Assembly: GCF_048403405.1 (NCBI RefSeq)
Contig: NZ_CP183129.1
Source: Escherichia coli
GTDB taxonomy: Bacteria > Pseudomonadota > Gammaproteobacteria > Enterobacterales > Enterobacteriaceae
Length of the DNA stretch: 64,000 bases
Reading direction: 5' to 3' (one strand)
This document shows positions 41,406-64,000 of the stretch, one piece after another (within the stretch, counting starts at the first letter, position 1; every line of letters starts with the position of its first letter). A model generated the notes under the pieces. The model had not been told where the DNA came from. It saw only the letters and a program-made list of their open reading frames with translations, and made no database searches. A program made the translations under genes and the position numbers.

Positions 41406-41621
41406 ATGGCACTCAACTGTCCAACCTGCAAAACCCCTCTCGAACGCAATGGCGAGACTGCCCACTGTGCAACTTGCGACAAAGACTTTACCGTCCAGGC
41501 ACTTTGCCCTGAGTGTCATCAGCCGTTACAAGTGTTAAAAGCTTGTGGTGCTGTGGACTATTTTTGCCAACATGGGCACGGTTTAATATCTAAAAAACGC
41601 GTTGAATTTGTTATTGCTTAA
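41406..41621 (+). CDS. yfgJ: Zinc-ribbon protein YfgJ
   Basis: 71 aa with CPTC...CATC...CPEC...CQHGH. Confidence 0.88.
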   Translation: MALNCPTCKTPLERNGETAHCATCDKDFTVQALCPECHQPLQVLKACGAVDYFCQHGHGLISKKRVEFVIA

Positions 41622-41830
41622 TATCATGTGAATATATTGTTTTATCATTTATATTTAATATGTGAATGGTAAAACAATCTGTTATTAGTGGAATAACTAA
41701 TGTAATTGAGTGAAATCACTAATTTAAATAATTAAGAATATATTTATTCTTTATGACATGCCTTTCTGAATAATCAGGGATACAATATTAAAGCTTATTT
41801 TTGACTGTATCATTGTCACAGGGAAAGTGC
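41622..41830 (+). promoter_or_regulatory. AT-rich upstream region of sinH-like gene (candidate promoter / nucleoid-protein silencing region)
   Basis: About 200 bp with very high A+T, at the island's left junction. Confidence 0.45.
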
Positions 41831-44008: not shown

Positions 44009-44062
44009 GATTGGCGTAAGGCCAGTCGGCCAGTCGCTGAAGGTTCATTAAGGAGAGCATCA

Positions 44063-45040
44063 ATGAAGCAGGATAAAAGACGCGGTCTGACCCGGATCGC
44101 ATTGGCGCTGGCACTGGCAGGTTATTGTGTGGCACCTGTGGCGCTGGCGGAAGAAAGCGCCTGGGTCGACAGCGGCGAAACCAATATTTTCCAGGGAACC
44201 ATTCCGTGGCTCTATTCGGAAGGGGGAAGCGCTACGACAGATGCCGACCATGTAACGTTGACTTCAGATCTAAAAGGCGCTCGCCCGACAGGTAGTGAAA
44301 CGGACAAGCGTCTTTACTCGGGTGATAAATTAACCGTAAGTTGGGAAATTGGTGATACCGAAGGCGACGTGGATCTTGGGGGATTGGGCGATAACGCAAA
44401 GACTATCGATACTATCCGCTGGATGAGCTACAAGGACGCTCAGGGTAACGATCCAAAAGAGCTGGTAACGAAGGTGACCAGTTACACCCTTACCGATGCC
44501 GACCGTGGTCGTTATATCGGTATTGAAATTACGCCAACCACGCAGACCGGTACGCCAAACGTCGGGAATGCGCTGCATCTTTATGACATTTCCACTGCCA
44601 GCGGCGGCGGAAGCGACAGCGACAACGTTGCGCCAGGGCCGGTGGTTAACCAGAACCTGAAAGTCGCCATCTTTGTTGATGGTACCAGTATCAACCTTAT
44701 CAACGGCAGCACGCCAATCGAACTTGGCAAAACCTACGTGGCCAAACTGTACTCGGATGAGAACAAAAACGGCAAGTTTGATGCGGGTACCGATGCTGAC
44801 GTTACCGCCAATTATGACTTCCGTTGGGTACTTTCTGGCAGCAGCCAGCAGCTCGGCACCTCGGGTGGTATCGTTAACTCAAGCTTCGATAATAACAATC
44901 TGGTCATCCCTGCGACCAACGAAGACGCCAGAACCAACCTTAACGGCCCTGCGCGCGATGGTAAAGAAGCTCTTACCATCCCGACCAACGGCGACGGGGT
45001 ACAGGGGTACAAACTTCACATTATTTACAAACACAAATAA
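44063..45040 (+). CDS. sinI: Secreted protein SinI-like (signal peptide; shares C-terminal domain with SinH-like passenger)
   Basis: 325 aa, signal peptide ending VALA; C-terminal ~95 aa align with SinH-like C-terminus (VIPATN...DG.QGY.L...Y.K). Confidence 0.65.
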   Translation: MKQDKRRGLTRIALALALAGYCVAPVALAEESAWVDSGETNIFQGTIPWLYSEGGSATTDADHVTLTSDLKGARPTGSETDKRLYSGDKLTVSWEIGDTEGDVDLGGLGDNAKTIDTIRWMSYKDAQGNDPKELVTKVTSYTLTDADRGRYIGIEITPTTQTGTPNVGNALHLYDISTASGGGSDSDNVAPGPVVNQNLKVAIFVDGTSINLINGSTPIELGKTYVAKLYSDENKNGKFDAGTDADVTANYDFRWVLSGSSQQLGTSGGIVNSSFDNNNLVIPATNEDARTNLNGPARDGKEALTIPTNGDGVQGYKLHIIYKHK

Positions 45041-45048
45041 CGCGTACT

Positions 45049-45085
45049 CAGCAGCATTCCCGCAAGGGAATGCTGTTTCCGCATA
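45049..45085 (+). terminator. Hairpin/terminator after sinI-like gene
   Basis: cagcattccc-gcaa-gggaatgctg followed by TTTCCGCATATTTT. Confidence 0.5.
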
Positions 45086-45116
45086 TTTTGCTTAATCCCG
45101 GATTAAGCAAAATATG
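45082..45116. promoter_or_regulatory. 35-bp perfect palindrome upstream of giant gene
   Basis: catattttgcttaatcc-c-ggattaagcaaaatatg, 17-bp arms around a single central base, ~45 bp upstream of start codon. Confidence 0.45.
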
Positions 45117-45160
45117 TTGATGCGACAAGCGTCCGTTTAACAACCGGTGGAGTTTCTGTC

Positions 45161-48100
45161 ATGTCCCTGACCCTGAATAAAATCCTTGTGTTATGCGCAT
45201 TGCTGATAAGCGCAATGCTGCCTGGGTGGTCATGGGCAGAATCTGCATGGCAAGACTCTTCAGATACGGTCGGCGAATTTAACGGTACCGTGCCCACCGC
45301 CGACAGTGCCAGCATACCCGTCTACCAGGGCAGTGTCTTTCTGGATCCTGCAAAGACGCATGAGGTAGCGTTTACCGCTAAACCGAGTGAATTCAGCGCG
45401 GATATTAGCGTCTCTAAATTGCTCGTCACCAATCCGCAAGACAGAGAAGGCGATATCATTTCCACCCCACGTTGGGAAAACCAAACGCCACCGACAGTAT
45501 CTTTAGTTTGGGCGGATGCCGCGACGCCGGACACCTTACTGGACCCACAGCCAGTCGCAGATCGCTCGTTTTGCGCTCAGGGACTTGCCGGGCGTTCGCT
45601 GGTCGCCTGGGCGCAGCCTGATCCCCAACAGACCATGCCGCTGTTATATTTACTCACCTCGACGGGCTATCCCTATGAAAGTGTTCTGACGCTCGCCGAT
45701 CAGAAAGTGACGCTGAAGATTGCGCCCGCGCAGGGTGACCTTATTTCCGTCAGCGCCGCGGGCTATGACGAATCCTCCGGTGCGGCGAAAACGACGGTTG
45801 GCGGCAGTATCACGTTAACGGTCACCACCAAAGATTGCGTCGGTAATGTTGTGGGGAATATTCCTTTTGTTATCAAACGCAAAGATGCTGAAAACCGCCA
45901 GGGTGTGGTGAACAATACTGCGCCGGTAAAACTGGGCACGACCGAATTAACCACCACCGCGACGGAATATCGTGGTACTACCGATGCGAATGGTGTTGCC
46001 ACGGTTACGGTCACCCAGGCCAACGGCCCTGGTGTAAAAACGCCGTTGGTCGCGAGCCTTGCGGGTATTGCTCAGGCCAGTGAAACGGCAGTGATCTTTA
46101 CCGTCCTCACCAGCCCGGATGTCCCGCAGGCTACAATGTGGGGTCATATGCCCGATACGCTGAAGGCCCGTGATTACACTTTTAGTCGACCAAAACTGGC
46201 GGCGGAAGTCGATAATGAAGACGGTACGGTTAACGATCACAATGAAACCTGGTCCACCTTTACCTGGAGCGGCGCGGATAAACATTGCGACATTTTGCCC
46301 GGAATGCGTCAGTTCGGTGCGCTGGCGACGGTGGTGCCAACGTCAGTGCAGGATGTGGCTGGTTGGCCGATGCAGGGTAATTTCTACTGGTCATCACTGG
46401 CGGGGATGAGTGGCCAGCACCATGCGGCGGATGTTTCGAACCGCAGCGAAGCGCAAAAACCGGACGATACGACGTTTATTGTGAGCTGTGTCGATAAAGA
46501 AGCGCCCGATGTTGAACCGAAGCTGGTACTGACGCCGGGCAGTTATGATTCGACGATAAAAGCGATGAAAGTAAAGGTGGGGGAAGAGGCTTCTTTACGC
46601 CTGACGATTACCGATAGCAAGAACAACGATCAGCCGCTGGCGTACTACTACTTTTCGCTGCATCTGGATGACGGCGTTAACCGTAAGAATCAAACTGACA
46701 CCGCGTGGCAGGCGAATCCGGTACAAATAGCGGGCGGCAGTAATGTCCATCAGGTTGACGCGCATACCTATGAAGGGATCACTGATGCTAACGGAGAGGC
46801 CTCTCTGACGCTGACCCAGCCAGGCGGTGTGGGGGTGAAAACTCACATCACCGCGAGAATGCGCAGCGATTTTACCGCCTCGGATGAGAAAGACGTTATT
46901 TTTACGGTGATCACCAGCCCTGATTCCGACAAAGCGCGGATGTGGGGACATATGTTGGGCATTATTGAAGCGAATAATATCTTTAAACGCCCACGGCTGG
47001 CGGATGAAACCGACAACGAACTGGGAGCAGTGCGGGAAAATAACGAAGACTGGGCGCTGTTTGATCAGAATAGCAGTATGCAGGCTGAGTGTGGTTTAGG
47101 TCATATTCCGAGCCAAAGCTCATTGCACAGTTTGTTTGCCGCACATCCAGCCAATGTCATCGGCACCGAATATGGCTGGCCAACGTTGCAAAAAGCGTAT
47201 CTTAGTGCGGTGGAAGAGACGTCGCACGCGTCGGTGAACCTGGCCACGGGCAACATCGACACCTATTCCGGCTTTAAGCAAAACTACCTTTCTTGTTCGG
47301 GCAATGAGATGGTCGCCCAGATTGCTGCGACCACCGATCATGATGTTTCCACAAGCAGCAGAGCGCAGGCTAAAGTGGGTGAAACGATTACCATGACGGT
47401 ACGCACCTTTAATGCCTTGAATAATGCGCCCGTGCCGTATACCGCGTTCACCATCACTAAAGATATGGGGAAAAATCGTCAGGGGCAGAGCACGGGTTTC
47501 GATGATCCAACCCGCGGCGCAATCGAGATGAATGGCACGCTCTACGGAACATCGCAACCGTCTTTAGTCTATGCAGGTACTACGGATGCGCAGGGTTTTG
47601 CTACTGTGGAAATTAAGCAACCGCAAGGTGTGGGCTTAGCGACGCCGCTGAATATTGCGCCTGTAAACTCCTATATTCCCAATACTGTTAATTACAATGT
47701 GATTTTCACTACGCTCACCAGTCCGGATGCGGTTGGCGCGCAGATGTGGGGGCATATGGATGAGACGATTACCGTCGATGCATTAACCTTTGCCCGACCC
47801 CGGCTGGCTGCGGAAGTGTCCAGCCCGGACGGCACATTAACGGAAAATAACGAAGTGTGGTCGCGCGTTAGCCAGGCCAACACTTCCAGCACCAGTAAAG
47901 GTGGCTGTGGTGCCAATATGCTCCCACGCCGTTCCCAGCTTAACGCGCTCTATGATGCTAACAGCGGTAACGCCGTTCAAACGGTACACGGTTGGCCAAC
48001 GCAGCGTCAGCCCTACTGGAGCAGTTCGCCCGCGGATCAGGTGCCGCATTACTACACCATAGCCCTCAACGATGGCGCGCGGACCGTTGGCGGTAGCACG

Positions 48101-51100
48101 GCGGTTTATGTCAGTTGCCTGACGACGGCTAACAATCCTGCCAGCAGCATTACGCTGGAAGTGGTGGACCCGGCGCAGTGGAACGCGGCAGCAAATGCGG
48201 CGAAGCTGAAAAAAGGCGAAACGCTACAGGTGAAGGTGACGGTAAAAGATGCTCAGGGCAATCCATTGGGTGATATGCCTTTTACGCTGAAGCGTGGCGA
48301 TGGTTATACCCGATCAAACGAAAAACACATTGCCGGTAGCGGTGATGCGCTGGTTGCGCCGGTTGTGATCAATAGTGGCCTGGCGGATGAAACTTCGCTC
48401 AATGATACCGCCGCAGCATACAGCGCGATGACCGGTAGCGATGGCACTAAAATTCTCACTATTACCCGCCCGGATACCCATGGCACAAAAACGTCGCTGA
48501 CCGCCGCGCTCTATTCAGACACAACGAAAAAAGCGACCCTCGATACCATTTTTACCGTTGTCACCAGCCCAGACAGCAATAAAGCGAAAATGTGGGGGCA
48601 TATGCCGGAAACGGTGACGGCTGCGGATGGAACGGTCTTTAAACGCCCATTATTGTTGAAAGAGTTATCCAGTACGTCGGGTCGAACAGCGATTGCAGAA
48701 GATAATGAGGACTGGGCGCAATTTACCCAAACTCAGGCGACAAGCACATCCTCTAATGGTTGTGGTAGTGAATATGTTCCCTCTCAGGCCGGGCTGGAGT
48801 CATTGTATGAAGCCAACCGCGGCAATGCGATGAAAACGGTTCAGGGCTGGCCCGTCGCCTCAAGTTACCTTACCAGCACGACAGGCAGCAGTAGTCTGGA
48901 ACAGCGTGACTTAAAGGCCGTCAATCTCAGTTCAGGCACCAGTTCGATAATTCCATCGGCCACAAAAGAACTGCTTACCTGCCAGACGACGCCGATCGTC
49001 AAGGCTAGCCAAATCGTTCTTGAGGCTGCGGACCCCACAAAATTTGACAGTACGAATAATGTTGTCAAAGCGAAAAAAGGGGAAGAAGTCGTGGTTCGCG
49101 TGACCACTAAAGATTCGCAGGGTAACCCGGTGGGAAATACCGCGTTTACGCTTAAACGTAACCTTAGCGTCAATCGGGCAAATGCGTCTACAACGGTGAC
49201 AGCAGGCGCGCTCATCGTGACGGATGCCTGGGGTAACACGCAGAGTAATTTTTCCTCAACAACAGCACTGATTTATGGCGTTACCGGCGCAGATGGTACG
49301 ACAACACTTGCACTGAAACAGGACAATACCACGGGTTTAAAAACCGAACTGACCGCCATGCTGGATACAGATAATAACGTAAAATCAATGCTTCCGGTGG
49401 TCTTTACGGTGATAACCAGCCCCGATACCCCTAAAGCAAAATTCTGGGGGCATATGGCCGAAACGATGACCGGTGCTGGCGGGCTTATTTATAAAAGACC
49501 GTTATTGCAAGATGAGCTTTCCGTTACAACCAGTCGAAGCTCTTTTCAGGAAGATGGAGAGAGCTGGTCACTGTTCTCGCCGGACCAGTCGAACAACACA
49601 TCTGTAAATGGTTGCGGTGCAGGATATGTCCCGGTTGAAAGTGAGCTGGAGTCACTGTATGCCGATGAAGGTTACGTGCCAATACATGACGTTACGGGAT
49701 GGCCTGTATCACGCGCCTATATCTCCAGTACGGTTGTTGCCTATTACACTCAAACATTTAATTTTAAAGCGGTTTCGTTAAAAACGGGTGATGGAACGGA
49801 GGTCATGTCAAGCAGTATAGGACTGCTAAGTTGTCGGGCTACCCCAGTGGCGGTGACCAGCCACATTATTGTTGAAGCGAACGATGCGACACAATTTGTC
49901 AAAGTTGACGAAACCCTCAGCGCACTAAAACGGAAAAAAGGTGACGACGCGGTGATTCGCGTGGTGACAAAAGATGCGCAGGGAAATGTCGTACCAAATG
50001 TTCCGTTTATTCTCAAACGTGAAGGATCGACAAATCGCCAGAATGTACAGTTGTCGAACAGAACTATCACTGTAATCAACGCTGCGGGAACGTCGGCAAG
50101 AGTGGATACTCCATCAATCTCCCTTTATGCGGTGACAGGTGCAGACGGGACAGCCACGTTTACGGTAAAGCAGGATGATTCTATAGGCCTGGTAACCAAT
50201 GTGTACGCTCAGGCCTATCAGTCGAGCCTGGAATCCAACAAATTACCCGTGATGTTTACCGTGATAACCAGCCCGGATACCCCCCTGGCAAGTTACTGGG
50301 GGCATATGGCGGAAACGTTCACTACGCGTTCTGGTACTGCCTTCAAACGCCCCTTACTCTCTGCTGAAAGATCGTCGGGCCAGTCGTTTATAGAAGACAA
50401 TGAAGAGTGGGCCGTGTTGAGATCGGCAACAAAGGGGGATATCGATAAAAGCGGGTGCGATGTACATTATCAACCACTGTTAAGCGAACTACAGGCATTG
50501 TACGACGAACACCCAAGTCGTGCGATAAAGACCGATCTGGGTATTCCGGTAAATAGCTACTGGTGGGCTTACGACATGGTGGCATATGCGGGTAACTGGT
50601 ACGATCAATATATTTATCTGTTAAATGGATCAAGTGGAAGAGCGTCTTCAACCACCTCGGCATTAATGCTGTGCCTGGTAAACCCTCATCCAGAGGCGGC
50701 TTCTATTGAAATGACCTCAACGGCGGAGGATGCAACGAAAACGGCCAGCAATGATGGCAGGCCCAGCGCAACAGCGAAGAAGGGAGAGGTTATCCCGATG
50801 ACTGTTACGGTGCGAGATAGCGCAGGCAATCCACTGCCAGGTGCCAGCTTTAACCTTAAACGAGGAACTGCGCTGAACCGCGCTAAAGCTGCGTACGATG
50901 CCTCTGCAGATGATCTTACCATCATACCTGTGGAACCTACTGGGGTAACGTCAATCTTGTATGGGGATGGGACGCAGGCTCTTCTGAAGACAGGGAGCGA
51001 TGGTAAAGCTACGTTTGAGGTCAGCCAGAATAGCAGTTATGGGCTGTCAACGCCGCTCAGCGCAGAACTCATGCGCGATACCTCGAAAAGCGTCACGCTG

Positions 51101-53203
51101 GATGTCATTTTCACGGTGATAACCAGCCCGGATTCGCCAAAAGCGAAATACTGGGGCCATATGCCGGAAACGTTTACCAGTTCGGCAGGCGTGACCTTCA
51201 AGCGCCCATTACTGGCAGCGGAAGCGACTACGGGGAGCTCGGTAAACGGTAATAATGAGACATGGTCATATATATATAGTACTCAAAAAGCGACGGCAGA
51301 TTGTTCGCTGGAATATCAACCGCGCCTCAGCGAATTGCAGGGGTTATATGACGATCACCCAAACGGGGCGTTAACGAAAGATCTGGGGTTGCCGATAGCG
51401 TCAGGAAACTGGTGGATTTATGAATTGCTTAACTCCAATGGTAGCTCCTGGTATTACCAGGTCTTTAACCTAAGTACGGGACGAGCATCATCCGCACTCT
51501 CTCCGGTTGCTCTAATGCTCTGCCTGGCACAGCCTCACTCTAAGCCGTCAAGCGTTACCCTGACTTCAATAGCATTTGATGAGACGAGAACCGCAAGTAA
51601 CGGCGGTACACCTTCGGCATCGGCGAAAAAGGGCGAGACAATCCCGTTAGTCGTGACAGTAAAAGACCAAAATGGCAACCTGCTGAGTGGCGAGAGCGTG
51701 ACGCTTCAGCGGGCACAGGCGAAAAGTCGTTCAGGAATTAGGCCCTCATCGTCGGCAGATGATCTTATTGTAGATGTCATCACACCGACAGCGGTCAGCA
51801 TTCCCTTTACTCAGGATACGGCAAAATGGCTTGGCTTTACCGGCAGTGATGGCACAGTGACGTTCAATGTTACGCAAAACGCCACCACCGGCCTGGCAAC
51901 GCCGTTTACGGTCTCGCTTGCACAAGATCCGCAGATCACGTCAAACCTGGACCTGATATTTACCGTGGTCACCAGCCCTGACTCCCTGGATGCCAACTAC
52001 TGGGGCCATATGCCAGAAACGGTGACAGCGGCAAATGGAACCGTCTTTGAACGACCGAAATTGTGGAAGGAACTGCCATCGACCTCCGGGGTAAATAAAA
52101 CCAATAACAATAATGAGGACTGGCCCTATTTTTCGTCAACCACTAAAGCAAATTCCAGCCTCAGCCCTTGTGAGGAAGCCCGGCAACCGTTGCTCAGCGA
52201 TATGAAGTCACTGTATCAACGTTATCCCAATAACACCCTTACGACGGAAACTGGCTGGTCAGTTTATTATTACTGGTGGGCGCAGGATAAGACTACAGAT
52301 GGTAAAAATCAGTCGCTCAATATGAAAGATGGCACAACGACATTGAATGGTAATGCCGCTTATCAGGCGTGTCTGGTGTCTGCGCGCGCGACGGTTTCCA
52401 GCGTCACACTGACCTCAACAGCGTTTGATGCTGACAGCCAGGCGGCGAAAGTGAAAAAAGGCGAAGCCATGCCCGTTACCGTGACGGTGAAAGACAGCGC
52501 CGGGAATACGGTACCGAATGTGGAATTTACTTTGAAACGTGGCGATGCATCGCCGCGTAACGCTGGGGCGACGTTGTATGGTGATGTGGTGGCGATGGAC
52601 GATCTCATCGTTCAGCCGTTATCTGGTTCGGCTGTTACGCTGAGTGAAAGCGGTAATACCATTAGTGGCATGACAGGCGCGGATGGGACGGCAAGTTTTA
52701 CGCTCCGCCAGGATAATACCCCTGGTTATAAAACGCCACTGACGGTTACTCTGGCTAATTACGCTTCCGCGACAGACACGCTGGACGCTATTTTTACGGT
52801 ACCAACCAGCCCGAATGTTTCCTCGGCGCACTTTTGGGGACATATGGCAGACACTGTAGTGGTGAATGGTAAATCGCTACATCGACCGTTGTTAACGACA
52901 GAATTGCCGTCCGGGGCTAATCCCGTATCCTCACCGATTATTAACTACGAAAACTGGGCTTCTGCACATATCATTGATGCCAGTAAATGGGATATTGCAA
53001 GGCAGTGTGGCAGCATAGAAAATGCACCGACATACAATGAATTAGAGTTGTTGCACACTGTTTTTAATTCACTGGGATGGCCGTCTTCACCAAGTTTTCC
53101 TTATTTGTCCTCTCAACAGTGTGGGATGGACGAAGGCACTGGAGCACAGGATTGTAGTATCACGCTAATGAATAAACCGGGTCTGGTGACCTGCTTCCAG
53201 TAA
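45161..53203 (+). CDS. Giant secreted repetitive protein, RatA/RatB-like (Ig-like/adhesin-type tandem modules)
   Basis: 2680-aa uninterrupted ORF, signal peptide ...LPGWSWA; about nine ~270-aa tandem units each with (I/V)FTV(I/V)TSPD...WGHM, a Cys-containing segment and a KKGE...V.V.VKD..GN motif. Confidence 0.8.
45760..53203 (+). repeat. Intragenic tandem repeat array (~9 units of ~805-853 bp) within giant gene
   Basis: TSPD...WGHM motif recurs near 46092, 46897, 47701, 48548, 49400, 50251, 51104, 51956, 52790 (manual count). Confidence 0.75.
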
Positions 53204-53262
53204 CCAGCATGGCGCATCTGGCGTGGCCTGGGAGCCAGTGCCGGATGCGATGCTGGCGCATC

Positions 53263-54800
<1,538 letters not shown>

Positions 54801-56267
54801 ATGCTACGTATCGCTAAAGAAGCTCTGACGTTTGACGACGTTCTCCTCGTTCCTGCTCATTCTACCGTTCTGCCGAATACTGCTGACCTCAGCACCCAGC
54901 TGACGAAAACTATTCGTCTGAATATCCCTATGCTTTCCGCAGCAATGGATACCGTAACGGAAGCGCGCCTGGCTATTGCTCTGGCTCAGGAAGGCGGTAT
55001 CGGCTTTATCCACAAAAATATGTCCATTGAACGCCAGGCGGAAGAAGTTCGCCGTGTGAAAAAACACGAATCTGGCGTGGTGACTGACCCGCAGACTGTT
55101 CTGCCAACCACGACGCTGCGCGAAGTGAAAGAACTGACCGAGCGTAACGGCTTTGCGGGCTACCCGGTCGTTACCGAAGAAAACGAACTGGTGGGTATTA
55201 TCACCGGTCGTGACGTACGTTTTGTTACCGACCTGAGCCAGCCGGTTAGCGTTTACATGACGCCGAAAGAACGTCTGGTCACCGTGCGTGAAGGTGAAGC
55301 CCGTGAAGTTGTGCTGGCAAAAATGCACGAAAAACGCGTTGAAAAAGCGCTGGTGGTTGATGACGAATTCCACCTGATCGGCATGATCACCGTGAAAGAT
55401 TTCCAGAAAGCAGAACGTAAACCGAACGCCTGTAAAGACGAGCAAGGCCGTCTGCGTGTTGGTGCAGCGGTTGGCGCGGGTGCGGGTAACGAAGAGCGTG
55501 TTGACGCGCTGGTTGCCGCAGGCGTTGACGTTCTGCTGATCGACTCCTCTCACGGTCACTCTGAAGGCGTTCTGCAGCGTATCCGTGAAACTCGTGCTAA
55601 ATATCCGGATCTGCAAATCATCGGCGGCAACGTGGCAACAGCTGCGGGGGCACGCGCTCTGGCAGAAGCTGGTTGCAGCGCGGTTAAAGTCGGCATTGGC
55701 CCTGGCTCTATCTGTACGACTCGTATCGTGACTGGCGTAGGTGTTCCGCAGATCACCGCCGTTGCTGACGCCGTAGAAGCCCTGGAAGGCACCGGTATTC
55801 CGGTTATCGCTGACGGTGGTATCCGTTTCTCAGGCGATATCGCCAAAGCTATCGCCGCAGGTGCAAGCGCGGTAATGGTGGGTTCCATGCTGGCGGGTAC
55901 TGAAGAATCTCCGGGTGAAATCGAACTCTACCAGGGCCGTTCTTACAAATCTTACCGTGGGATGGGCTCTCTGGGTGCGATGTCCAAAGGTTCTTCTGAC
56001 CGTTACTTCCAGAGCGACAACGCTGCCGACAAACTGGTGCCGGAAGGTATCGAAGGTCGCGTGGCCTATAAAGGTCGCCTGAAAGAGATCATTCACCAGC
56101 AGATGGGCGGCCTGCGCTCCTGTATGGGCCTGACCGGCTGTGGTACTATCGACGAACTGCGTACTAAAGCGGAGTTTGTACGTATCAGCGGTGCGGGCAT
56201 TCAGGAAAGCCACGTTCACGACGTGACCATTACTAAAGAGTCCCCGAACTACCGTCTGGGCTCCTGA
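54801..56267 (+). CDS. guaB: IMP dehydrogenase
   Basis: 488 aa from ATG 54801 ([21 protein letters not shown]...); CBS pair and catalytic loop [11 protein letters not shown]. Confidence 0.96.
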
Positions 56268-56335
56268 TTCTCTTCGCCCGACTTCATGTCGGGCGATTTA
56301 TATTATCTGTTTCACTTGCCTCGGAATAAGCGTCA

Positions 56336-57913
56336 ATGACGGAAAACATTCATAAGCATCGCATCCTCATTCTGGACTTCGGTTCTCAGTACACTCAACT
56401 GGTTGCGCGCCGCGTGCGTGAACTGGGTGTTTACTGCGTACTGTGGGCGTGGGATGTGACAGAAGCACAAATTCGTGACTTCAACCCAAGCGGCATTATT
56501 CTTTCCGGCGGCCCGGAAAGCACCACCGAAGAAAACAGCCCGCGTGCGCCGCAGTATGTCTTTGAAGCAGGCGTACCGGTATTCGGCGTTTGCTATGGCA
56601 TGCAGACCATGGCAATGCAGTTGGGCGGTCACGTTGAAGCCTCTAACGAACGTGAATTTGGCTACGCGCAGGTTGAAGTCGTAAACGACAGCGCACTGGT
56701 TCGCGGTATCGAAGATGCGCTGACTGCAGACGGTAAACCGCTGCTCGATGTCTGGATGAGCCACGGCGATAAAGTTACCGCTATCCCGTCCGACTTCGTC
56801 ACCGTAGCCAGCACCGAAAGCTGCCCGTTTGCCATTATGGCCAACGAAGAAAAACGCTTCTACGGCGTACAGTTCCACCCGGAAGTGACTCACACCCGCC
56901 AGGGTATGCGCATGCTGGAGCGCTTTGTGCGTGATATCTGCCAGTGTGAAGCCCTGTGGACGCCGGCGAAAATTATCGACGACGCTGTAGCTCGCATCCG
57001 CGAGCAGGTGGGCGACGATAAAGTCATCCTCGGCCTTTCTGGTGGCGTGGATTCCTCCGTAACCGCAATGCTGCTGCACCGCGCTATCGGTAAAAACCTG
57101 ACTTGCGTATTCGTCGACAACGGCCTGCTGCGTCTCAACGAAGCAGAGCAGGTTCTGGATATGTTTGGCGATCACTTTGGTCTCAATATTGTTCACGTTC
57201 CGGCAGAAGATCGCTTCCTGTCAGCGCTGGCTGGCGAAAACGATCCGGAAGCAAAACGTAAAATCATCGGGCGCGTTTTCGTTGAAGTATTCGATGAAGA
57301 AGCGCTGAAACTGGAAGACGTGAAGTGGCTGGCGCAGGGTACTATCTACCCTGACGTTATCGAATCTGCGGCGTCTGCAACCGGTAAAGCACACGTCATC
57401 AAATCTCACCACAACGTGGGCGGCCTGCCGAAAGAGATGAAGATGGGCCTGGTTGAACCGCTGAAAGAGCTGTTCAAAGACGAAGTGCGTAAGATTGGTC
57501 TGGAGCTGGGCCTGCCGTACGACATGCTGTACCGTCATCCGTTCCCGGGACCAGGCCTTGGCGTTCGTGTTCTGGGTGAAGTGAAGAAAGAGTACTGTGA
57601 CCTGCTGCGCCGCGCTGACGCCATCTTCATTGAAGAACTGCGTAAAGCGGGCCTGTACGACAAAGTCAGCCAGGCGTTCACCGTCTTCCTGCCAGTACGT
57701 TCCGTTGGCGTAATGGGCGATGGTCGTAAGTATGACTGGGTTGTCTCTCTGCGTGCTGTCGAAACCATCGACTTTATGACCGCACACTGGGCGCATCTGC
57801 CGTACGATTTCCTCGGTCGCGTTTCCAACCGCATTATCAATGAAGTGAACGGTATTTCCCGCGTGGTGTATGACATCAGCGGCAAGCCGCCAGCTACCAT
57901 TGAGTGGGAATGA
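56336..57913 (+). CDS. guaA: GMP synthase (glutamine-hydrolysing)
   Basis: 525 aa; GATase domain plus ATP-PPase motif SGGVDSSV. Confidence 0.96.
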
Positions 57914-57959
57914 TTAACAGCTAACTCATAGCAAATCATTCCTATTCAGATGCCAACTC

Positions 57960-57992
57960 AACCCTCTGTTTTTGCAGAGGGTTTTTGTTTTT
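57960..57992 (+). terminator. Rho-independent terminator of guaBA
   Basis: ccctctg-tttttg-cagaggg hairpin followed by TTTTTGTTTTT. Confidence 0.75.
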
Positions 57993-58105
57993 ATGTATTC
58001 ATTTCTATTCACTCTACACCATATTTTTCGGCGGTACAGGTGACGGTATTACCTTAAAGGTATACTCTCATACCGTCATGAAAATGGTTTCTATACGGGT
58101 GAATT

Positions 58106-59356
58106 GTGCTTACCGATACAAAATTAAAAAACCTCAAGCCGCAGGACAAACTGTACAAGGTCTCCGATCGTGACGGGCTGTATGTAGCTGTGCTTACGTC
58201 AGGCACGGTCTCGTTTCGCTATGACTACCGTATCAACGGTCGCCGCGAAACACTGGTAATCGGGCAGTATGGGCGTGACGGTATCAGCCTGGCAGAAGCG
58301 CGAGAAGAACTGATTGCTGCAAAGAAGCTGCTTAAAGCAGGCCAGTCACCGGCTGCGGCTAAACGTGACGGTATCAAAAAGATTCGTGGTGCCGAGACGT
58401 TTGCGGTACATACCGACAGTTATATGAAACATGTCATCCTGGCTGACAGTACCCGCGCAATGAAGCAGGCGGTGATCGACCGTGACATACTTCCGGTTCT
58501 TGGCAACAAAATGATGACTGAAATTACCACATCGATGGTTCGTGATTTGTGTGACCGGATTGTCGAACGCGGTGGTCGGGCAACAGCAGTGCAGGCCAGG
58601 GAGATCATCAGCAGCGTATACCGTCACGCCAATGACCGTGGTCATGGTTTGTTTAATCCTGCGGCTGACATTAAACCTTCGTCTATCGCCATATTTAAAC
58701 CACGAGAGCGAACACTGACGCCAGAAGAAATTGGCCTGTTCTTCCGCACGCTGGATGCCATTGGTGCTATGGGCACTATGAAAATGGCTTTAAAGCTGGT
58801 GCTTATCACTATGGTTCGTAAAGGCGAATTCACCAATGCAACGTGGGACGAAATAGATTTTAAAAAATGGACATGGACAATTCCTTCAGACCGCATGAAG
58901 GGAAGCCGGGCGCATGTTATTTACCTGCCTAAACAGGCACAGGATATATTGGTCGGGTTGCAGATGTGCGCTGGTGGAAGTGAATATCTGGTTCCTGGTC
59001 GTTACAACTTCCGGAAGCCATTATCTAATGCCGCGCTGAACTCTCTGATCGACAGAACGGTGAAAATAATAAATGAAGATGGTGAGCATATTCAGGACTT
59101 CACCGTACATGATATGCGCCGTACAGCCAGTACGTTGTTGCATGAGGCTGGTTATCCTTCAGACTGGATTGAAAAGGCTCTGGCACATGAGCAGAAAGGT
59201 GTGCGCGCCGTATATAACAAAGCGGAATACGCCAGACAGCGCGCCTACATGTTGCAGCAGTGGGCCGATATGATTGATTCCTGGATTGACGGGGAGCATA
59301 CGGATCTGATTCCGTTCTCCCCGTCGAAGTTTGAGAAGTGGATGGCGGGAGAATAA
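58106..59356 (+). CDS. Tyrosine recombinase, P4-type phage integrase
   Basis: GTG start; N-terminus LTDTKLKNLKPQDKLYKVSDRDGLYVAV...FRYDYRINGRRE typical of P4-family integrase arm-binding domain; C-terminal catalytic region with HDMRRT and Y near end. Confidence 0.9.
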   Translation: MLTDTKLKNLKPQDKLYKVSDRDGLYVAVLTSGTVSFRYDYRINGRRETLVIGQYGRDGISLAEAREELIAAKKLLKAGQSPAAAKRDGIKKIRGAETFAVHTDSYMKHVILADSTRAMKQAVIDRDILPVLGNKMMTEITTSMVRDLCDRIVERGGRATAVQAREIISSVYRHANDRGHGLFNPAADIKPSSIAIFKPRERTLTPEEIGLFFRTLDAIGAMGTMKMALKLVLITMVRKGEFTNATWDEIDFKKWTWTIPSDRMKGSRAHVIYLPKQAQDILVGLQMCAGGSEYLVPGRYNFRKPLSNAALNSLIDRTVKIINEDGEHIQDFTVHDMRRTASTLLHEAGYPSDWIEKALAHEQKGVRAVYNKAEYARQRAYMLQQWADMIDSWIDGEHTDLIPFSPSKFEKWMAGE

Positions 59357-59359
59357 CGT

Positions 59360-59554
59360 TTAATAGTTCTGCTGATTTTCTTCCATCTCGGCTTCTGCTG
59401 CCAGTGATTCAATTTTGTCTGCGAATATTGCTGACAGCGTTGCAAATTCAGCATCAGTGACAGCGGGAATTGGAACAAACCTGATCCCGCTGTGTGCAAG
59501 CATGTTTGCAGTTTCAAGGCATTTCCTTAAATCTGCTGGTGATGCCCTGTTCAT
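59360..59554 (-). CDS. Hypothetical small phage protein (64 aa)
   Basis: ATG 59554 overlaps methyltransferase stop (ATGA coupling); acidic C-terminus; no recognised family. Confidence 0.4.
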   Translation of the reverse strand: MNRASPADLRKCLETANMLAHSGIRFVPIPAVTDAEFATLSAIFADKIESLAAEAEMEENQQNY

Positions 59555-60201
59555 GCTGCACGCTCCCGCCCCTGGTTGTCTGTTGGTGACAGCGGAGCAT
59601 TGCTGAATGCATTTGTTAATTCGGCAATATCCAACGCGTATCCAGGGTGTAGTTGCACTGCCGGGTCTTCGCACTGATTACCCCAAACATCGAAGCCATG
59701 AGACGTCTGGCGGGCGAACAGTTCAATGCGAGAAACATCGCCTAACAATTGCACAAGTTTTTCACGAACAATATCTGGTTTTCTTGAATGCTCAAGCCGC
59801 GGTGCGGTAAATGACTGAACGATCCCTGCATTAATGCGCGTAGGTAGTTTTCCCTTTACTGCAAACAGGCAATCTTCACTATTGGCGCGAGTCATGTGTC
59901 CCATACCCATAACCAGTTTATCTGGTTGTCGACTACCACATTTTATCCACGTGAAGCCCTTCATGGTCATCAGACGGAATCCCCAGACTTCAACAACTTT
60001 TAGTGCTTCGAGTGGTTGTGTTGGCACCCACCACATGGCCAACAGACAGTTTTCATCGGCCAAATCCCACACAGGAAGGCGGCAGATATCCAGCACACTC
60101 ATAACCGGGTATTTAAAACCGGCACCGCGATTACCATCTGCGGCTTTGTCCCGGTATACCCAGGGTGGATCTGCATAGATTAGTGTGTATTTCTTAGTCA
60201 T
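59551..60201 (-). CDS. MT-A70 family DNA N6-adenine methyltransferase (phage-type)
   Basis: MTKKYTLIYADPPWVY... with catalytic DPPW motif; start at ATG 60201 preferred (GGGGTGG RBS), ORF-track GTG 60213 possible. Confidence 0.8.
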   Translation of the reverse strand: MTKKYTLIYADPPWVYRDKAADGNRGAGFKYPVMSVLDICRLPVWDLADENCLLAMWWVPTQPLEALKVVEVWGFRLMTMKGFTWIKCGSRQPDKLVMGMGHMTRANSEDCLFAVKGKLPTRINAGIVQSFTAPRLEHSRKPDIVREKLVQLLGDVSRIELFARQTSHGFDVWGNQCEDPAVQLHPGYALDIAELTNAFSNAPLSPTDNQGRERAA

Positions 60202-60493
60202 AAACCACCCCACAACATCCTATGCCGCTATAGTCGCCACGGCGAAGGCCGTTACCTTTTGTGATACATTGGTCCCTGCGAACCGCGATCCTTGCACGCT
60301 CAACATCACCAGAAGCAACATCCATACACTGAAGCCAAAGGTGGGCGGCAATGCGGAACTGCCCTTTTTTCTCTCTTTCAATCGCGCGTTTTTCGATCTC
60401 TATCGCCGCAGGAGTAACGGCAACAACCTTTGAAGGGCTGCGCATTGAAACCTTGTTCATGTGATATTTTTCAAGTCGGCTTAACTTTCTCAC
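60194..60493 (-). CDS. Hypothetical phage protein (start uncertain)
   Basis: ORF overlapping methylase start by 8 bp; basic/charged; no recognised motif. Confidence 0.35.
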   Translation of the reverse strand: MRKLSRLEKYHMNKVSMRSPSKVVAVTPAAIEIEKRAIEREKKGQFRIAAHLWLQCMDVASGDVERARIAVRRDQCITKGNGLRRGDYSGIGCCGVVYD

Positions 60494-60602
60494 TTAATCC
60501 AACCCTCTCTGAAAATTAATGCCAGCAGATAAAGCCATGCTGAAACAGAGGCCAGGAATAAGTACCATCCTGACCATTTGCTCCAGTGCCTTAGCAGCAC
60601 AC

Positions 60603-60851
60603 TCATTCCGCGTTGCTCACGGGACGATATACACGTTGCTGAACAGGAGGTTTTTTACCCTGGAACTCTGCCGGGCTTGCTGCATGACGTTCATCAAGCC
60701 AACGCTCAACTTCATCACGGTTCCATGCGCAGCGTTTATCGGTGATATACCAGCGTTTAGGAAATTCCCCTGCGCGCTCCATACGGTCGATAGTGCTCCA
60801 TGACAGTGGAACCACCGCCAGGAGTTCCTTCTTACCTAATGCACCTTTCAT
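60603..60851 (-). CDS. AlpA-family DNA-binding protein (putative excisionase / phage transcriptional regulator)
   Basis: 82 aa; LSWSTIDRMERAGEFPKRWYITDKRCAWNRDEVERWL fits the AlpA/Vis winged-helix pattern. Confidence 0.65.
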   Translation of the reverse strand: MKGALGKKELLAVVPLSWSTIDRMERAGEFPKRWYITDKRCAWNRDEVERWLDERHAASPAEFQGKKPPVQQRVYRPVSNAE

Positions 60852-60900
60852 AAATACCTCTCTTGGTTGCAGTGCGGCGCGCGTGGCGCCGCGGTGGTGG

Positions 60901-61782
60901 TTACATAGATGTTTCGTTTAATTCTTCCCGACGAACGCTGTAAACGTCGGTGGCTTTTGCCAGCAGTTCGTCATCATCTGAAAGTTTTTGTGCAATGTAT
61001 TTGTAAGCCTTATCCAGTTCGGAGACAGTGCTGTAATTCATCGCTGCGCTGGTAAAGGCCATCAGCATTTCTTCTGGATCACGGCTATCCGCTTTACGCG
61101 TTTGCTCATCAGGCTTTTTCACTGGTTTAGCGTTGATCAGACTGTTCATTCCCGCAGCAGTAGTTGTTTGCGGAGTAATGTCTCGCTCAACGCGCGGTGC
61201 CGTTTCCTGTAATTCGTCAGGGGTGTAAACACCGAGAAGTACATCAGGAGCGTGCAGGCGAGCCCATCGTTTCGTGCAAAGATAGGCAAGTTGCTGGCGC
61301 GGATCCTGTTCCCACAATGGAGAGTTACGCACTCCGGCTTGCGCCATACTGATGGTAAGCTCACGGGGTTCTGCTTCTCCTTTAAGAACTGCTGACACAG
61401 TTACCGTCAGATTCGGTGATTTATCTGTTTTGCCGTTAACATTCGACCAGTCACCGCTCCAGCGATAATTCAGGCGTGTCGCTAGCAGGCTGGAAGAGGA
61501 TACGACCGCGTTTACCAACTGTGCTTCGTAGCCTAACGTTCCGTTTACCACATGCGTTTTCTGCGCCACGGCGAAAGGGTTCATTCCCCACTGTGCCGCC
61601 TGCATGGTCACCGCCAGGCAATCGGCAGGTTTGCCTTCAAGATGTTTCGGCACAGTCGCTTTGCTTTGTGACATCAACTCCGCGAAACGCACCAGTTGAT
61701 TCATGCCCTCGGGGCTGAAGATTGCCGCAGCAGTGCCTACAGTTGCGCCTGGTTGTGATGTGATTGCGATATCATTGCTCAT
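60901..61782 (-). CDS. Putative RecT/Bet-like single-strand annealing protein
   Basis: 293 aa immediately downstream of and overlapping an exonuclease gene; region ...AAQWGMNPFAVAQKTHVVNGTLGYE... resembles RecT-family core; assignment by context and weak motif. Confidence 0.5.
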   Translation of the reverse strand: MSNDIAITSQPGATVGTAAAIFSPEGMNQLVRFAELMSQSKATVPKHLEGKPADCLAVTMQAAQWGMNPFAVAQKTHVVNGTLGYEAQLVNAVVSSSSLLATRLNYRWSGDWSNVNGKTDKSPNLTVTVSAVLKGEAEPRELTISMAQAGVRNSPLWEQDPRQQLAYLCTKRWARLHAPDVLLGVYTPDELQETAPRVERDITPQTTTAAGMNSLINAKPVKKPDEQTRKADSRDPEEMLMAFTSAAMNYSTVSELDKAYKYIAQKLSDDDELLAKATDVYSVRREELNETSM

Positions 61783-62600
61783 ACGTACATATCCTGTTTA
61801 CGTGCCCAGTCAGGGCGTTTAATAATTTCCACTCCGCCCCATTCATCGTTGATGCGGCATTCGTGATAGGTATTCAGATCCCGGCGGAACAGAGCGTGCC
61901 CGGCATCGACATCTGGCGCATCCAGCTCGAACACGCGTACCGGATACCGACCACAATCAATGCTTTCGCTCACGGCAAGAAAGAAAAAACCATGCGGCTG
62001 ACCAGTAACCCTCATTGCGCCTTCGCGGTACATTGCGTCCTGCACGTGGTAGCGGAATTCCTCGATGTGGCGTGCAAAACGGTCCATATCTGCAACCTTT
62101 TTCACGTCGACGATCACGTTGTGCTCGTTCAGCCATTTGTCTGGACGAATTCGGCACAACTCACCCGTCTCTTCATCATTCCAGTACATTGATGCTTCGC
62201 AGTAACCAGGTGCTTCCAGCATCCAGCGTGCCGCCGGGTGAGCCATTGCGCTATCACGCATCAGCTCCAGTTTCCGCCACTGCTCGGCATCAAGTACCGT
62301 AATCCCCATATCCGCCACATCACGAAGAAATGCCTCTTCGTCAGCTTTACCTTGTTTCGTCCGACGATCGAATTTCGGTGAAACAATGAAGCGTTTGTCG
62401 AACTCTCCAGGCTCCAGAAGCAGACAGTGCAATGCGGTTCCCATATCCAGTGCAGACTTTTTCTCTTCGTCTTCTGGTGCTGCCTGAACCCATTTAAGAA
62501 GCGCCGGATTCTTGGCAACCATGTCTAGTTGCGACTTACTCACTCCGTCACCGGCGTGGTAGTCTTCGTTGCTGATGTCGAAATAAATTCCCGGTTTCAT
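61779..62600 (-). CDS. PD-(D/E)XK-type exonuclease (exodeoxyribonuclease VIII / RecE-like C-terminal domain)
   Basis: 273 aa; N-terminal GIYFDISNEDYHAGDGVSKSQL and IVDVKK block fit this nuclease fold; paired with annealing protein. Confidence 0.65.
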   Translation of the reverse strand: MKPGIYFDISNEDYHAGDGVSKSQLDMVAKNPALLKWVQAAPEDEEKKSALDMGTALHCLLLEPGEFDKRFIVSPKFDRRTKQGKADEEAFLRDVADMGITVLDAEQWRKLELMRDSAMAHPAARWMLEAPGYCEASMYWNDEETGELCRIRPDKWLNEHNVIVDVKKVADMDRFARHIEEFRYHVQDAMYREGAMRVTGQPHGFFFLAVSESIDCGRYPVRVFELDAPDVDAGHALFRRDLNTYHECRINDEWGGVEIIKRPDWARKQDMYV

Positions 62601-62895
62601 GCCGCGTCCCTCTGTCCATCAAGCTGATCCGCCAGATCCCAGCGGGCGATAATTGCCATTGCCTCTCGCCGGTAGGCATCCATCAGTTCTTCGAACTCAG
62701 GGCTGTCTTTAGCAGCCTCCAGTACTTCCTGACGAACGCCTTTGCCTGTTACAACGTCGAAAGTTGAGGACAGTTGATGAAGTCGGATGCTCTCAATCAG
62801 TTCAACTTGTCGGTCATATAGCTGTTCTGACAGGCGGTAGTCCTTGTCGAATGCCAGCATGATTTTTTGAAGATTTTTCTGCTGATTAACGTTCA
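62597..62895 (-). CDS. Hypothetical phage early protein
   Basis: ~99 aa from ATG 62895 (MNVNQQKNL...); stop overlaps exonuclease start; unknown function. Confidence 0.4.
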
Positions 62896-62897
62896 TT

Positions 62898-63051
62898 ATC
62901 AGCCCTCCCATATCTCGTTATCGTTGGCCACATCGCGAGCTTCTTTGCTGACGAAAGCCCACTTAATGCCTTCCTGTAAGGTGCGGAACTTCCAGCTCAT
63001 GAATCCGCATGCAGTAACGCAGTACCAACCGTTGATGATTTTCCACTGCAT
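62898..63051 (-). CDS. Small ORF (50 aa), first gene of leftward early operon (tentative)
   Basis: MQWKIINGWYCVTACGFMSWKFRTLQEGIKWAFVSKEARDVANDNEIWEG; not in the supplied ORF track (<60 aa), found by manual translation. Confidence 0.3.
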
Positions 63052-63057
63052 AACTTG

Positions 63058-63147
63058 TTACCTCGGTCTGTTACCGTTGAGGTAATGATTATGCGTATCT
63101 GGTTTGATGTCAATAGATATGAGTTAAAAAAATTACCCAACAGGTAA
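63058..63147. promoter_or_regulatory. Early-operon promoter/operator region with inverted repeats
   Basis: TTACCTC-N14-GAGGTAA (63058-63085) and palindrome TTACCCAACAGGTAA (63133-63147), which recurs at 63845-63859. Confidence 0.5.
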
Positions 63148-63156
63148 TCTAACAGG

Positions 63157-63184
63157 CAATAAAAAAGCCGCCATGAGGCGGCTT
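63157..63184 (-). terminator. Rho-independent terminator downstream of repressor gene
   Basis: aagccgcc-atga-ggcggctt hairpin with U-tract on minus strand. Confidence 0.65.
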
Positions 63185-63204
63185 ACTTGCTGAAAACTAT
63201 AGTT

Positions 63205-63789
63205 TTATTGTTTGTTTTTTTCGTTCTGGTTGATGACAAATTCAATGTAACTTTCGATCTTTGCTTTCTCGGTTTCGGGTAACAATGCGTAGCGCGAGCG
63301 GTCATAGTTGATAGTCGCAGGGTCGTGCGGGTGAATCAGTAATTCATAGCCATGACGCCCGAATGCGGATGCAACATTCTCCAGGGTGGAAATGGAAACG
63401 CTGACCTCATTGTTTAACAGGCGGCTGATTGTCACCTGGGCGACGCCGGATGCGCGGTGTAGTTTTCCCTGCGTTGAAAGGTCGCGGCTTTCGCTCATCC
63501 AGCGTTCCAGGTTGTGAGCAGCCAGCTGACCTATATCACTCGGGCCGACAGGCTGAAAACCTTCCTGAGAAAGCGAGCGATCGATATCAAGCCAGTTACG
63601 GGGTTTATTGGCGGCAGCTTCAATTTTTCGCGCAACCTGGTCGCCGATAACCTTCTTGCCAAGAGCCCAGCGGTTTACCAGATTTGCCTGAGTTCCAAGT
63701 TTTTCTGCCATCCGCGTCTGAACACCATTGAATTCACGGTCGATCAAGTCGTTGAGATTTTGCCTGCGGACGTCCTGGATACTTTTCAT
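63205..63789 (-). CDS. Phage repressor-like protein with two HTH (XRE/CI-type) domains
   Basis: 194 aa; two helix-turn-helix-like segments (QTRMAEKLGTQANLVNRWALG and LHRASGVAQVTISRLLNNEVSVSISTL); flanked by operator-like palindromes. Confidence 0.6.
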   Translation of the reverse strand: MKSIQDVRRQNLNDLIDREFNGVQTRMAEKLGTQANLVNRWALGKKVIGDQVARKIEAAANKPRNWLDIDRSLSQEGFQPVGPSDIGQLAAHNLERWMSESRDLSTQGKLHRASGVAQVTISRLLNNEVSVSISTLENVASAFGRHGYELLIHPHDPATINYDRSRYALLPETEKAKIESYIEFVINQNEKNKQ

Positions 63790-63943
63790 TTTCTGGAAAA
63801 TCGCCTCATATATGAATCAGTAGATGATTCAATTTAAAGCAATATTACCCAACAGGTAAATGCACCTCATAGGTAACTATCCTTGATTTTTGTTACCTTA
63901 TGGGTGAATATTTATTATCTGAAATAAATATCAGGCAATAGCT
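63790..63943. promoter_or_regulatory. Divergent promoter/operator region (repressor vs rightward gene)
   Basis: Contains TTACCCAACAGGTAA (63845-63859) and GGTAAC...GTTACC inverted repeats. Confidence 0.5.
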
Positions 63944-64000
63944 ATGAGCGATAACGGACATTTCGATTTCAAAAAGCACTGGCTTGCACTTACTCCGGAC
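63944..64000 (+). CDS. Rightward phage gene, 5' fragment only (truncated by window end)
   Basis: ATG 63944 (MSDNGHFDFKKHWLALTPD...) open to window edge; divergent from repressor. Confidence 0.35.
   Translation, partial: MSDNGHFDFKKHWLALTPD

Follow-up and report, generated by a model that had tools for sequence, protein, structure and literature searches.

The final 6.1 kb of the window (the whole 64,000-nucleotide stretch of Escherichia coli DNA analysed here), from 57899 to 64000, is almost certainly the left end of a prophage of the Uetakevirus (epsilon15/phiV10) group inserted at the 3' end of guaA, as judged by its sequence match to isolated phages. The remainder of the element is cut off by the window end. 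A phage of the phiV10/epsilon15 type in the last codons of guaA is an ordinary finding at a published and already known site, and the value of the analysis lies mainly in correct annotation: a strain-variable prophage of the 38-kb class at a published hotspot, with the true boundary between chromosome and phage placed at 57899-57915.

An earlier note on this DNA had proposed a prophage directly downstream of guaA, and this is borne out by 96-98% DNA identity to isolated phages. Phage vB_EcoP_ZX5 matches at 98.4% across all 6,086 nt of the visible part, TL-2011b at 97.9% and phiV10 at 96.4% (97-100% of the visible 6.1 kb covered), and phiv142-3 also falls within 96-98%. Isolated phages align to the 6.1 kb as one or two pieces, and a match of this identity in so few pieces means that the pattern is not due to chance. 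All 11 complete open reading frames are full length and 97-100% identical to ZX5 in amino acid sequence (tblastn), and together with the fragment at the cro position they pair one-to-one with ZX5, phiV10 and a prophage of E. coli F138. The gene order, in which the integrase is followed by a leftward early operon, a repressor and a divergent rightward gene, is that of Uetakevirus members (temperate podoviruses), membership being compared on the visible part; in a complete copy, the podovirus structural genes, the lysis cassette and attR would come after the window end. Among complete E. coli genomes, the best match across 57700-64000 is 98.7% identical.

The junction itself can be read from two comparisons. 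One E. coli strain has an empty site and matches the window at 100% over a 17.9 kb flank; its identity to the window stops exactly at 57915, and identity to the phages starts at 57899. The stretch common to both is the 17-mer ATTGAGTGGGAATGATT, which encodes the I-E-W-E-stop end of guaA and runs 2 nt further; for ZX5, phiV10 and epsilon15 it has been published as the attP/attB core (PMC9782041). These alignments place the exchange between phage and chromosome within the common core. The site was shown experimentally for ZX5 and, according to the same paper, has been proved for phiV10 and epsilon15 too (PMC9782041), and TL-2011b is also reported to be inserted in guaA (PMC3293862). Since the core restores the final four codons of guaA together with its stop codon, GuaA is unchanged by the insertion. 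The earlier proposal that attL overlaps the guaA 3' end was right, but its location within 57914-58105 was not, because the core begins 15 nt earlier; ~190 bp separate it from the int start at 58106.

The DNA just after guaA is phage DNA, and it carries its own terminator hairpin where the guaA terminator would be. This P' arm differs from ZX5 by 7 substitutions, with scattered ones elsewhere in the element, and only at the hairpin can it be aligned with the spacer between guaA and yfgI of K-12. The hairpin, which folds at -16.5 kcal/mol (z = -4.3), is found in free-phage attP, and the records of phiV10 and epsilon15 annotate it as a terminator; it had previously been taken for the guaBA terminator, a reading that has to be given up. 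A native look-alike is found at attR and in K-12, where it folds at -20.1 kcal/mol. Besides the terminator, the P' arm contains predicted arm-type sites for Int, and the int promoter presumably lies there too.

The origin of the arm was sought by looking for the 17-mer in a single genome of each species, with at least 120 loci examined, and a native source in another genus for its spacer and terminator look-alike was not found among the matches listed. The only phage-type spacer among these, in Superficieibacter, belongs to another prophage, as its Int is 86.5% identical. A replacement terminator as a general property of guaA-targeting elements was rejected: by a strict hairpin criterion, a hairpin is present at 12 of 31 loci with an Int homologue nearby and at 16 of 69 without one, among the loci listed.

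Table. Features of the guaA junction and of the visible part of the element, in window coordinates.
Feature	Coordinates	Strand	Basis or remark
guaA (GMP synthase), target gene	56336..57913	+	ORF; annotated guaA in matching genomes
attL core ATTGAGTGGGAATGATT, 17-bp identity of attB and attP	57899..57915	+	five-way attL/attR/attB/attP alignment
P' arm of attL (phage DNA), core to int	57916..58105	+	7 positions differ from ZX5 attP
Phage-borne rho-independent terminator, stem AACCCTCTG/CAGAGGGTT then T-run	57960..57983	+	terminator scan
Int arm-type site GTGACGGTAT, predicted	58040..58049	+	exact copies cluster only here in 64 kb window
Inverted arm-type motif copy, TGACGGTAT on minus strand	58070..58078	-	motif search
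Arm-type motif copies within int 5' part	58275-58284, 58365-58374, 58618-58626	+, +, -	
Tyrosine integrase, 416 aa, GTG start	58106..59356	+	Pfam Arm-DNA-bind_3 + Phage_int_M + Phage_integrase
DUF1382 small protein, 64 aa	59360..59554	-	annotation of relatives; mechanical ORF list gives 104 aa
MT-A70 family DNA adenine methyltransferase	59551..60201	-	PHROG 359, E 2e-119; relatives' annotation
PerC-family transcriptional activator	60194..60493	-	PHROG 868; relatives' annotation
38-aa ORF (phiV10 p35 / epsilon15 gp32, annotated membrane protein)	60490..60606	-	tblastn 97%: ZX5, phiV10, F138
AlpA/Vis-like protein, candidate excisionase	60603..60851	-	PHROG 66 'excisionase and transcriptional regulator'
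RecT-like single-strand annealing protein	60901..61782	-	PHROG 561, E 2e-145
PD-(D/E)XK exonuclease, RecE C-terminal domain-like	61779..62600	-	PHROG 412; NCBIfam exoVIII model positions 606-873
Small early-left ORF, 104 aa by ORF list, 99 aa annotated in relatives	62597-62911	-	PHROGs 856 and 898 (ORF pair)
Small early-left ORF, 50 aa	62899-63051	-	PHROGs 856 and 898 (ORF pair)
Left operator/promoter region, predicted	63071..63147	.	palindromes TTACC-N5-GGTAA at 63071-63085, 63133-63147
Terminator-like hairpin downstream of repressor gene	63165..63184	-	terminator scan; phiV10 terminator at equivalent place
Repressor, two helix-turn-helix motifs, 194 aa	63205..63789	-	PHROG 8
Right operator/promoter region, predicted	63845..63918	.	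TTACCCAACAGGTAA at 63845-63859; one-mismatch copy 63893-63907
Divergent rightward early gene 5' end, cro position	63944..64000	+	MSDNGHFDF...; cut by window end

The integrase reads from attL into the element, and its earlier description as a P4-type enzyme facing inwards from a GTG start holds good. Beyond the preceding stop, GTG is the earliest start codon available, and it is also the annotated start in phiV10, epsilon15 and ZX5. The Pfam domains (PF13356, 8e-20; PF22022, 3e-11; PF00589, 2.5e-19) point to a P4-type (INT_P4) architecture, with arm-binding N-terminal, central and catalytic domains as in P4 Int. The predicted catalytic residues R238, H335-x-x-R338, H361 and Y370 align with those of P4 Int, although amino acid identity to this enzyme is only 28% (over 409 aa, E 3e-41). 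Among the Uetakevirus integrases, amino acid identity is 99.5% to that of ZX5, 98.8% to that of phiV10 and 87% to that of epsilon15. P4 is also similar in its attP, which lies upstream of int and has its core flanked on either side by arm repeats, these extending into the int ORF, and in possessing a small protein of the Vis/AlpA type. The target of P4 is a tRNA-Leu gene, and a tRNA gene is typical of INT_P4 integrases without strictly defining them, whereas the target of the window Int is the coding 3' end of guaA.

The putative arm-type decamer GTGACGGTAT occurs in the P arm of ZX5 attP as well as in the P' arm and the 5' region of int. It is annotated as 'protein_bind integrase' at the equivalent position in the epsilon15 record, an annotation that is itself a prediction. 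IHF sites are also predicted in that record.

The leftward operon occupies 59360 to 63051 on the minus strand and contains everything that had been listed for it (small ORFs, exonuclease, annealing protein, AlpA-like protein and methylase), and the repressor and divergent rightward gene are present too. The AlpA/Vis-like protein is 38% identical to P4 Vis (ORF88) over 50 aa, and the annotation of epsilon15 gp33 agrees with its assignment. The RecT-like protein is 100% identical to that of ZX5 and only 74% identical to the RecT part of phiV10, where a single fused gene is annotated for exonuclease and RecT; the window has two overlapping genes, like ZX5. Both small early-left ORFs (62597..63051) are 100% identical in amino acid sequence to those of ZX5 and phiV10. 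The NCBIfam search gave nothing further beyond sub-threshold matches.

The repressor is 100% identical to ZX5 ORF21 and phiV10 p40 and 42% identical to that of epsilon15. The palindrome TTACC-N5-GGTAA near its gene is the motif of the 'protein_bind repressor' sites of the epsilon15 record, again annotated by prediction. A search with this pattern gave 10 matches against 1 expected, the exact ones being confined to the repressor region, and with a 6-nt spacer (TTACC-N6-GGTAA) none was found in the region; the palindrome spacer is 5 nt. A promoter scan placed a promoter-like site reading leftward (63113 to 63085) between the two left palindromes, and a rightward promoter-like site lies at 63890-63918, in the right operator region. 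The gene at the cro position is 231 nt long in relatives and matches an ORF annotated in F138, ZX5 and phiV10.

ZX5 (Uetakevirus; MW722083; PMC9782041) has the gene order in common with the window element, together with the same 17-bp att core ~190 bp upstream of int and the same integration at the guaA 3' end. In the Uetakevirus type members, Escherichia phage phiV10 and Salmonella phage epsilon15, the att core and its distance to int are the same, the Int arm decamer is at equivalent positions, the operator motif is shared and a terminator lies between core and int; epsilon15 is the more distant, by both Int and repressor. Tail spike, anti-repressor and accessory genes vary amongst Uetakevirus members.

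The chromosomal target is shared with islands of the GIsul2 family. A GIsul2-like mobilizable island occupies the guaA 3' end in E. coli SCPM-O-B-9504; over 393 residues, the island Int and the window Int are 54% identical. GIsul2 recombines at GAGTGGGA (PMC9376610), a motif that falls inside the 17-mer core. With 54% identity here against 28% to P4 Int, the window Int fits a clade that targets the guaA 3' end and includes GIsul2 Int and its relatives. It is nevertheless scarcely conceivable that the element is a non-phage integrative island of this type, with only the integrase family in common with phages, since the genes after int are the early-left operon and repressor of phiV10/ZX5, at 96-100% amino acid identity, and are not the RepA/RepC, Trb and MobA relaxase genes that form the cargo of GIsul2-like islands. 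This reading is refuted by the gene content within the window. Int homologues of 45-58% identity are found ~310 nt after the 17-mer in many Proteobacteria, among the matches listed, and a sample of 120 species genomes gave at least 34 loci with Int homologues above 40% identity, again among the matches listed.

What the Uetakevirus prophage may look like when complete is seen in E. coli F138, where a full prophage with the same left end lies between guaA and yfgI, its core copies 37,721 bp apart. After attR come directly yfgI-yfgH-yfgG-pdeF. The K-12 neighbours of guaA, which the earlier note considered to be replaced, are instead displaced by the insertion, from yfgI onward, and lie 37.7 kb further on in F138. 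That note had also named two findings that would speak against a prophage. One was the presence of these genes as core genes in K-12-like genomes, and they are absent downstream of guaA both in K-12 and in the strain with the 100% identical flank. The other was a lack of any att repeat or phage structural genes further downstream, and F138 has a second att core as well as structural and lysis genes there.

The window copy could still be a degraded remnant that has kept the int-to-repressor end and has lost, or suffered disruption of, the structural and lysis part beyond the window. The view of the element stops after 6.1 kb, the phage collection includes truncated records of such phages (13-19 kb), and even the F138 copy has two pseudogenes in its accessory region. 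Such a remnant is a minority prospect, however, given that none of the 11 visible ORFs is disrupted and that each is 97-100% identical to its counterpart in phages isolated as virions. The left end is found in 464 complete E. coli genomes (~8.6%), and 476 E. coli genomes contain the right junction (lysis-attR-yfgI); this near-equality suggests that most copies have both ends.

By analogy with the family, Int would bind both the core and the arm-type repeats (GTGACGGTAT) and, with IHF, integrate the phage, and excision would need Int together with the AlpA/Vis-like protein. The double-HTH repressor may hold lysogeny through the TTACC-N5-GGTAA operators that flank its own gene, and would shut off the leftward operon (RecET-like recombination, methylase, PerC and excisionase) as well as the replication and late genes that are read rightward. 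That Int, IHF and the repressor bind these motifs is predicted by analogy, the database annotations being predictions too. A complete copy would continue for ~37.7 kb to lysis genes and attR, where a second ATTGAGTGGGAATGATT is expected to be followed by TGACCCTGCACTATGAATGAACAAAACCCTCTGTTACTACAGAGGG, with the native guaA terminator, and then by yfgI.

An unseen remainder with unusual cargo, or a swap of the guaA terminator that alters guaBA expression, is very unlikely, and no pointers to either were found within the window. Such cargo might be, for example, a new gene for O-antigen modification or defence in the variable tail-spike/acyltransferase position. ZX5 lysogeny is reported to have no significant effect on growth or stress response (PMC9782041). 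The phage group includes members capable of O-antigen modification, the phiV10 record listing an O-acetyltransferase, and by this means the unseen part could affect serotype and phage susceptibility.

Over 57914-64000 the sequence aligns with phage ZX5 (vB_EcoP_ZX5) in a single piece covering 100% of the query at 98.4% DNA identity, and with phiv142-3, TL-2011b and phiV10 at 98.2, 97.9 and 96.4% identity, respectively, which supports the prophage interpretation made earlier from the sequence; identity to Enterobacter and Salmonella relatives is about 79%. According to database records, ZX5 and phiV10 are members of Uetakevirus; the other type member of this genus is Salmonella phage epsilon15. 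The 11 complete ORFs of the visible element are all full length and share 97-100% protein identity with those of ZX5 and, RecT (74%) excepted, with those of phiV10. The element is a Uetakevirus prophage: every visible feature agrees with this assignment, the structural module and attR lying past the window end. Publications or database annotations already exist for the element itself as well as for its att core, integration site and regulatory motifs.

The genes listed in the earlier note (integrase, leftward operon, repressor and divergent rightward gene) were all recovered by ORF and profile searches. Products of the leftward run include a DUF1382 protein, an MT-A70 DNA methyltransferase, a PerC-type activator, an AlpA/excisionase-like protein, a RecT-like annealing protein, a PD-(D/E)XK exonuclease resembling the RecE C-terminal domain, and two small proteins to which the profile searches assigned no function. 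The exonuclease and RecT genes (60901-62600, minus strand) overlap by 4 nt, as in ZX5 and E. coli F138, whereas phiV10 (29722-31482 of its locus) has one annotated fused RecE-RecT gene, the RecT part of which, at 74% identity, is a mosaic replacement.

Genes at the guaA end of the prophage (window coordinates)
Feature	Position	Strand	Basis
guaA	56336..57913	+	ORF list
Tyrosine integrase (Int), 416 aa, GTG start	58106..59356	+	Pfam Arm-DNA-bind_3, Phage_int_M, Phage_integrase
Early-left ORF run	59360 to 63051	-	ORF list
38-aa ORF	60490..60606	-	Matches ORF annotated in relatives
HTH repressor, 194 aa	63205..63789	-	ORF list and profile searches
Rightward ORF	63944, continuing past window end	+	ORF list

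Integration at the guaA 3' end is confirmed by an alignment of five att sequences, attL from the window and from F138, attR from F138, attB from K-12 and attP from ZX5, and by an empty site. The only block common to all five is a 17-mer, to the left of which attL tracks attB and to the right of which it tracks attP. A scripted comparison placed this core at 57899-57915. E. coli strain 4621, which is 100% identical to the window across 17.9 kb upstream and has yfgI directly after guaA, ceases to match at 57915, and ZX5 identity starts at 57899. The suggestion that attL might overlap the guaA 3' end was thus right, but its placement within 57914-58105 was not, since the core lies inside guaA. 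The core, ATT GAG TGG GAA TGA TT, carries guaA's final four codons and stop plus 2 nt, and GuaA is therefore unchanged by integration. The 17-mer occurs once each in ZX5, phiV10 and epsilon15, at equal distance from int. For ZX5 the same core at the guaA 3' end has been described 190 bp upstream of int, with attB, attL and attR demonstrated by PCR and sequencing, and the site is said there to have been proved earlier for phiV10 and epsilon15 (PMC9782041). Insertion in guaA has also been reported for TL-2011b (PMC3293862).

The same left end is present in F138 (98.7% identity), where the whole element is annotated: int, the early-left operon, the repressor, replication genes, terminase, portal, capsid and tail proteins, then an acyltransferase, holins, endolysin and an Rz-like protein. 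Immediately after the last of these come yfgI, yfgH, yfgG and pdeF. A repeat search found two direct repeats bracketing the element: ATTGAGTGGGAATGATT, in copies 37,721 bp apart, and a 27-nt hairpin sequence (93% identity). As the same four genes adjoin guaA in K-12, these neighbours were pushed away by the insertion and not, as first supposed, replaced.

Nor is the hairpin that follows guaA the native guaBA terminator. At 57960-57983, AACCCTCTG-loop-CAGAGGGTT followed by a T-run (-16.5 kcal/mol, z = -4.3, by terminator scan and folding) is on the right-hand side of the core, and therefore in phage DNA; it is also present in free-phage attP, and the phiV10 and epsilon15 records annotate it as a terminator. 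The native guaA terminator shares this stem, differs in its loop (-20.1 kcal/mol) and remains at attR beside yfgI. By geometry, integration swaps the hairpins, placing the phage one behind guaA and the native one behind the phage lysis operon; either would presumably terminate transcription at its new location.

Among 5,426 complete E. coli genomes, 4,569 (84%) have an uninterrupted guaA-yfgI junction, 464 (8.6%) contain at least 80% of window 57700-64000 and 476 (8.8%) have the lysis-attR-yfgI right junction; other interrupted guaA sites hold different elements, such as a GIsul2-like island. Because the visible ORFs are intact and the left and right ends are nearly equal in frequency, this prophage copy is quite likely to be complete.

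Int has the three domains of arm-binding tyrosine integrases and aligns end to end with P4 Int (E 3e-41), with catalytic R238, H335-x-x-R338, H361 and Y370 conserved. Its designation as P4-type thus stands for architecture and catalytic residues, but not for closeness, the identity being 28%. Judged by sequence, Int is much closer to the integrase of an island at the same guaA site in E. coli SCPM-O-B-9504 (54% over 393 aa). The RepA/RepC (IncQ type), TrbJ/TrbL and MobA/TraI relaxase cargo of this ~13-kb element (34350-47860 of its locus, NZ_CP144930.1) identifies it as a GIsul2-like mobilizable island. GIsul2 recombines at GAGTGGGA (PMC9376610), which falls within the 17-mer core.

Scanning one genome per species gave at least 120 loci with the 17-mer. 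At 104 of the 120 matches listed, from Proteobacteria, Firmicutes, Bacteroidota and other phyla, the 17-mer forms the 3' end of guaA and encodes ...IEWE-stop. An Int homologue of >40% identity is present at 34 of the 120, usually starting 208-347 nt past the core, with about 310 nt as the common distance. Thus a near-universal coding motif is the target of a broad integrase clade. In a Nanopelagicales MAG (L036, 1698-1745), a degenerate second core copy directly follows the guaA core (GAGTGGGAATGATT then GAATGGGAAAGATT) and may be a scar of past integration or excision.

The motif TGACGGTAT has five exact copies in the 64-kb window against ~0.5 expected for the two strands together, and all five fall within 58041-58626; tolerating one mismatch gives 30 matches against 10.5 expected. 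The P arm of attP contains another copy, and in the epsilon15 record integrase-binding sites with the sequence GTGACGGTAT are annotated at equivalent positions, two of them within the int ORF; P4 arm repeats likewise extend into int. The copies are predicted arm-type sites for Int. The candidate directionality factor for excision is the AlpA-like protein, which shares 38% identity with P4 Vis across 50 residues and was assigned by profile search to the PHROG 'excisionase and transcriptional regulator'.

The palindrome TTACC-N5-GGTAA, annotated as repressor sites in the epsilon15 record, is exact at 63071, 63133 and 63845, its only exact copies among 10 window-wide matches (1 expected), and has one mismatch at 63893. 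These sites lie on either side of the repressor gene, overlapping leftward (63113 to 63085) and rightward (63890 to 63918) promoter-like sites. In this arrangement, which resembles that of lambda, the repressor would switch off both the leftward recombination/excision operon and the rightward replication/late pathway. The repressor is 100% identical to those of ZX5 and phiV10, from which the same immunity may be read; in epsilon15 Int is 87% and the repressor 42% identical to the window proteins. The motif is common to the epsilon15 and phiV10 group despite repressors of 42% identity, with 8-11 copies per genome in epsilon15, phiV10 and ZX5 (the ZX5 locus being partial), some also preceding terminase, portal and tail-fibre genes.

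Elsewhere in the window, an island at 41831-53203 (plus strand) between yfgJ and xseA, absent from K-12, comprises sinH (an intimin-like inverse autotransporter), sinI and an 8-kb 'adhesion domain' gene; at least 80% of 40000-57898 is covered in 934 of the 5,426 genomes. Rfam matches at gathering score (iscRS stability element, AaHKsRNA22, ryfA, IS128 and sroE; at 15600-15709, 20808-20880, 23128-23741 and 36541-36632) are ordinary E. coli chromosomal RNAs.
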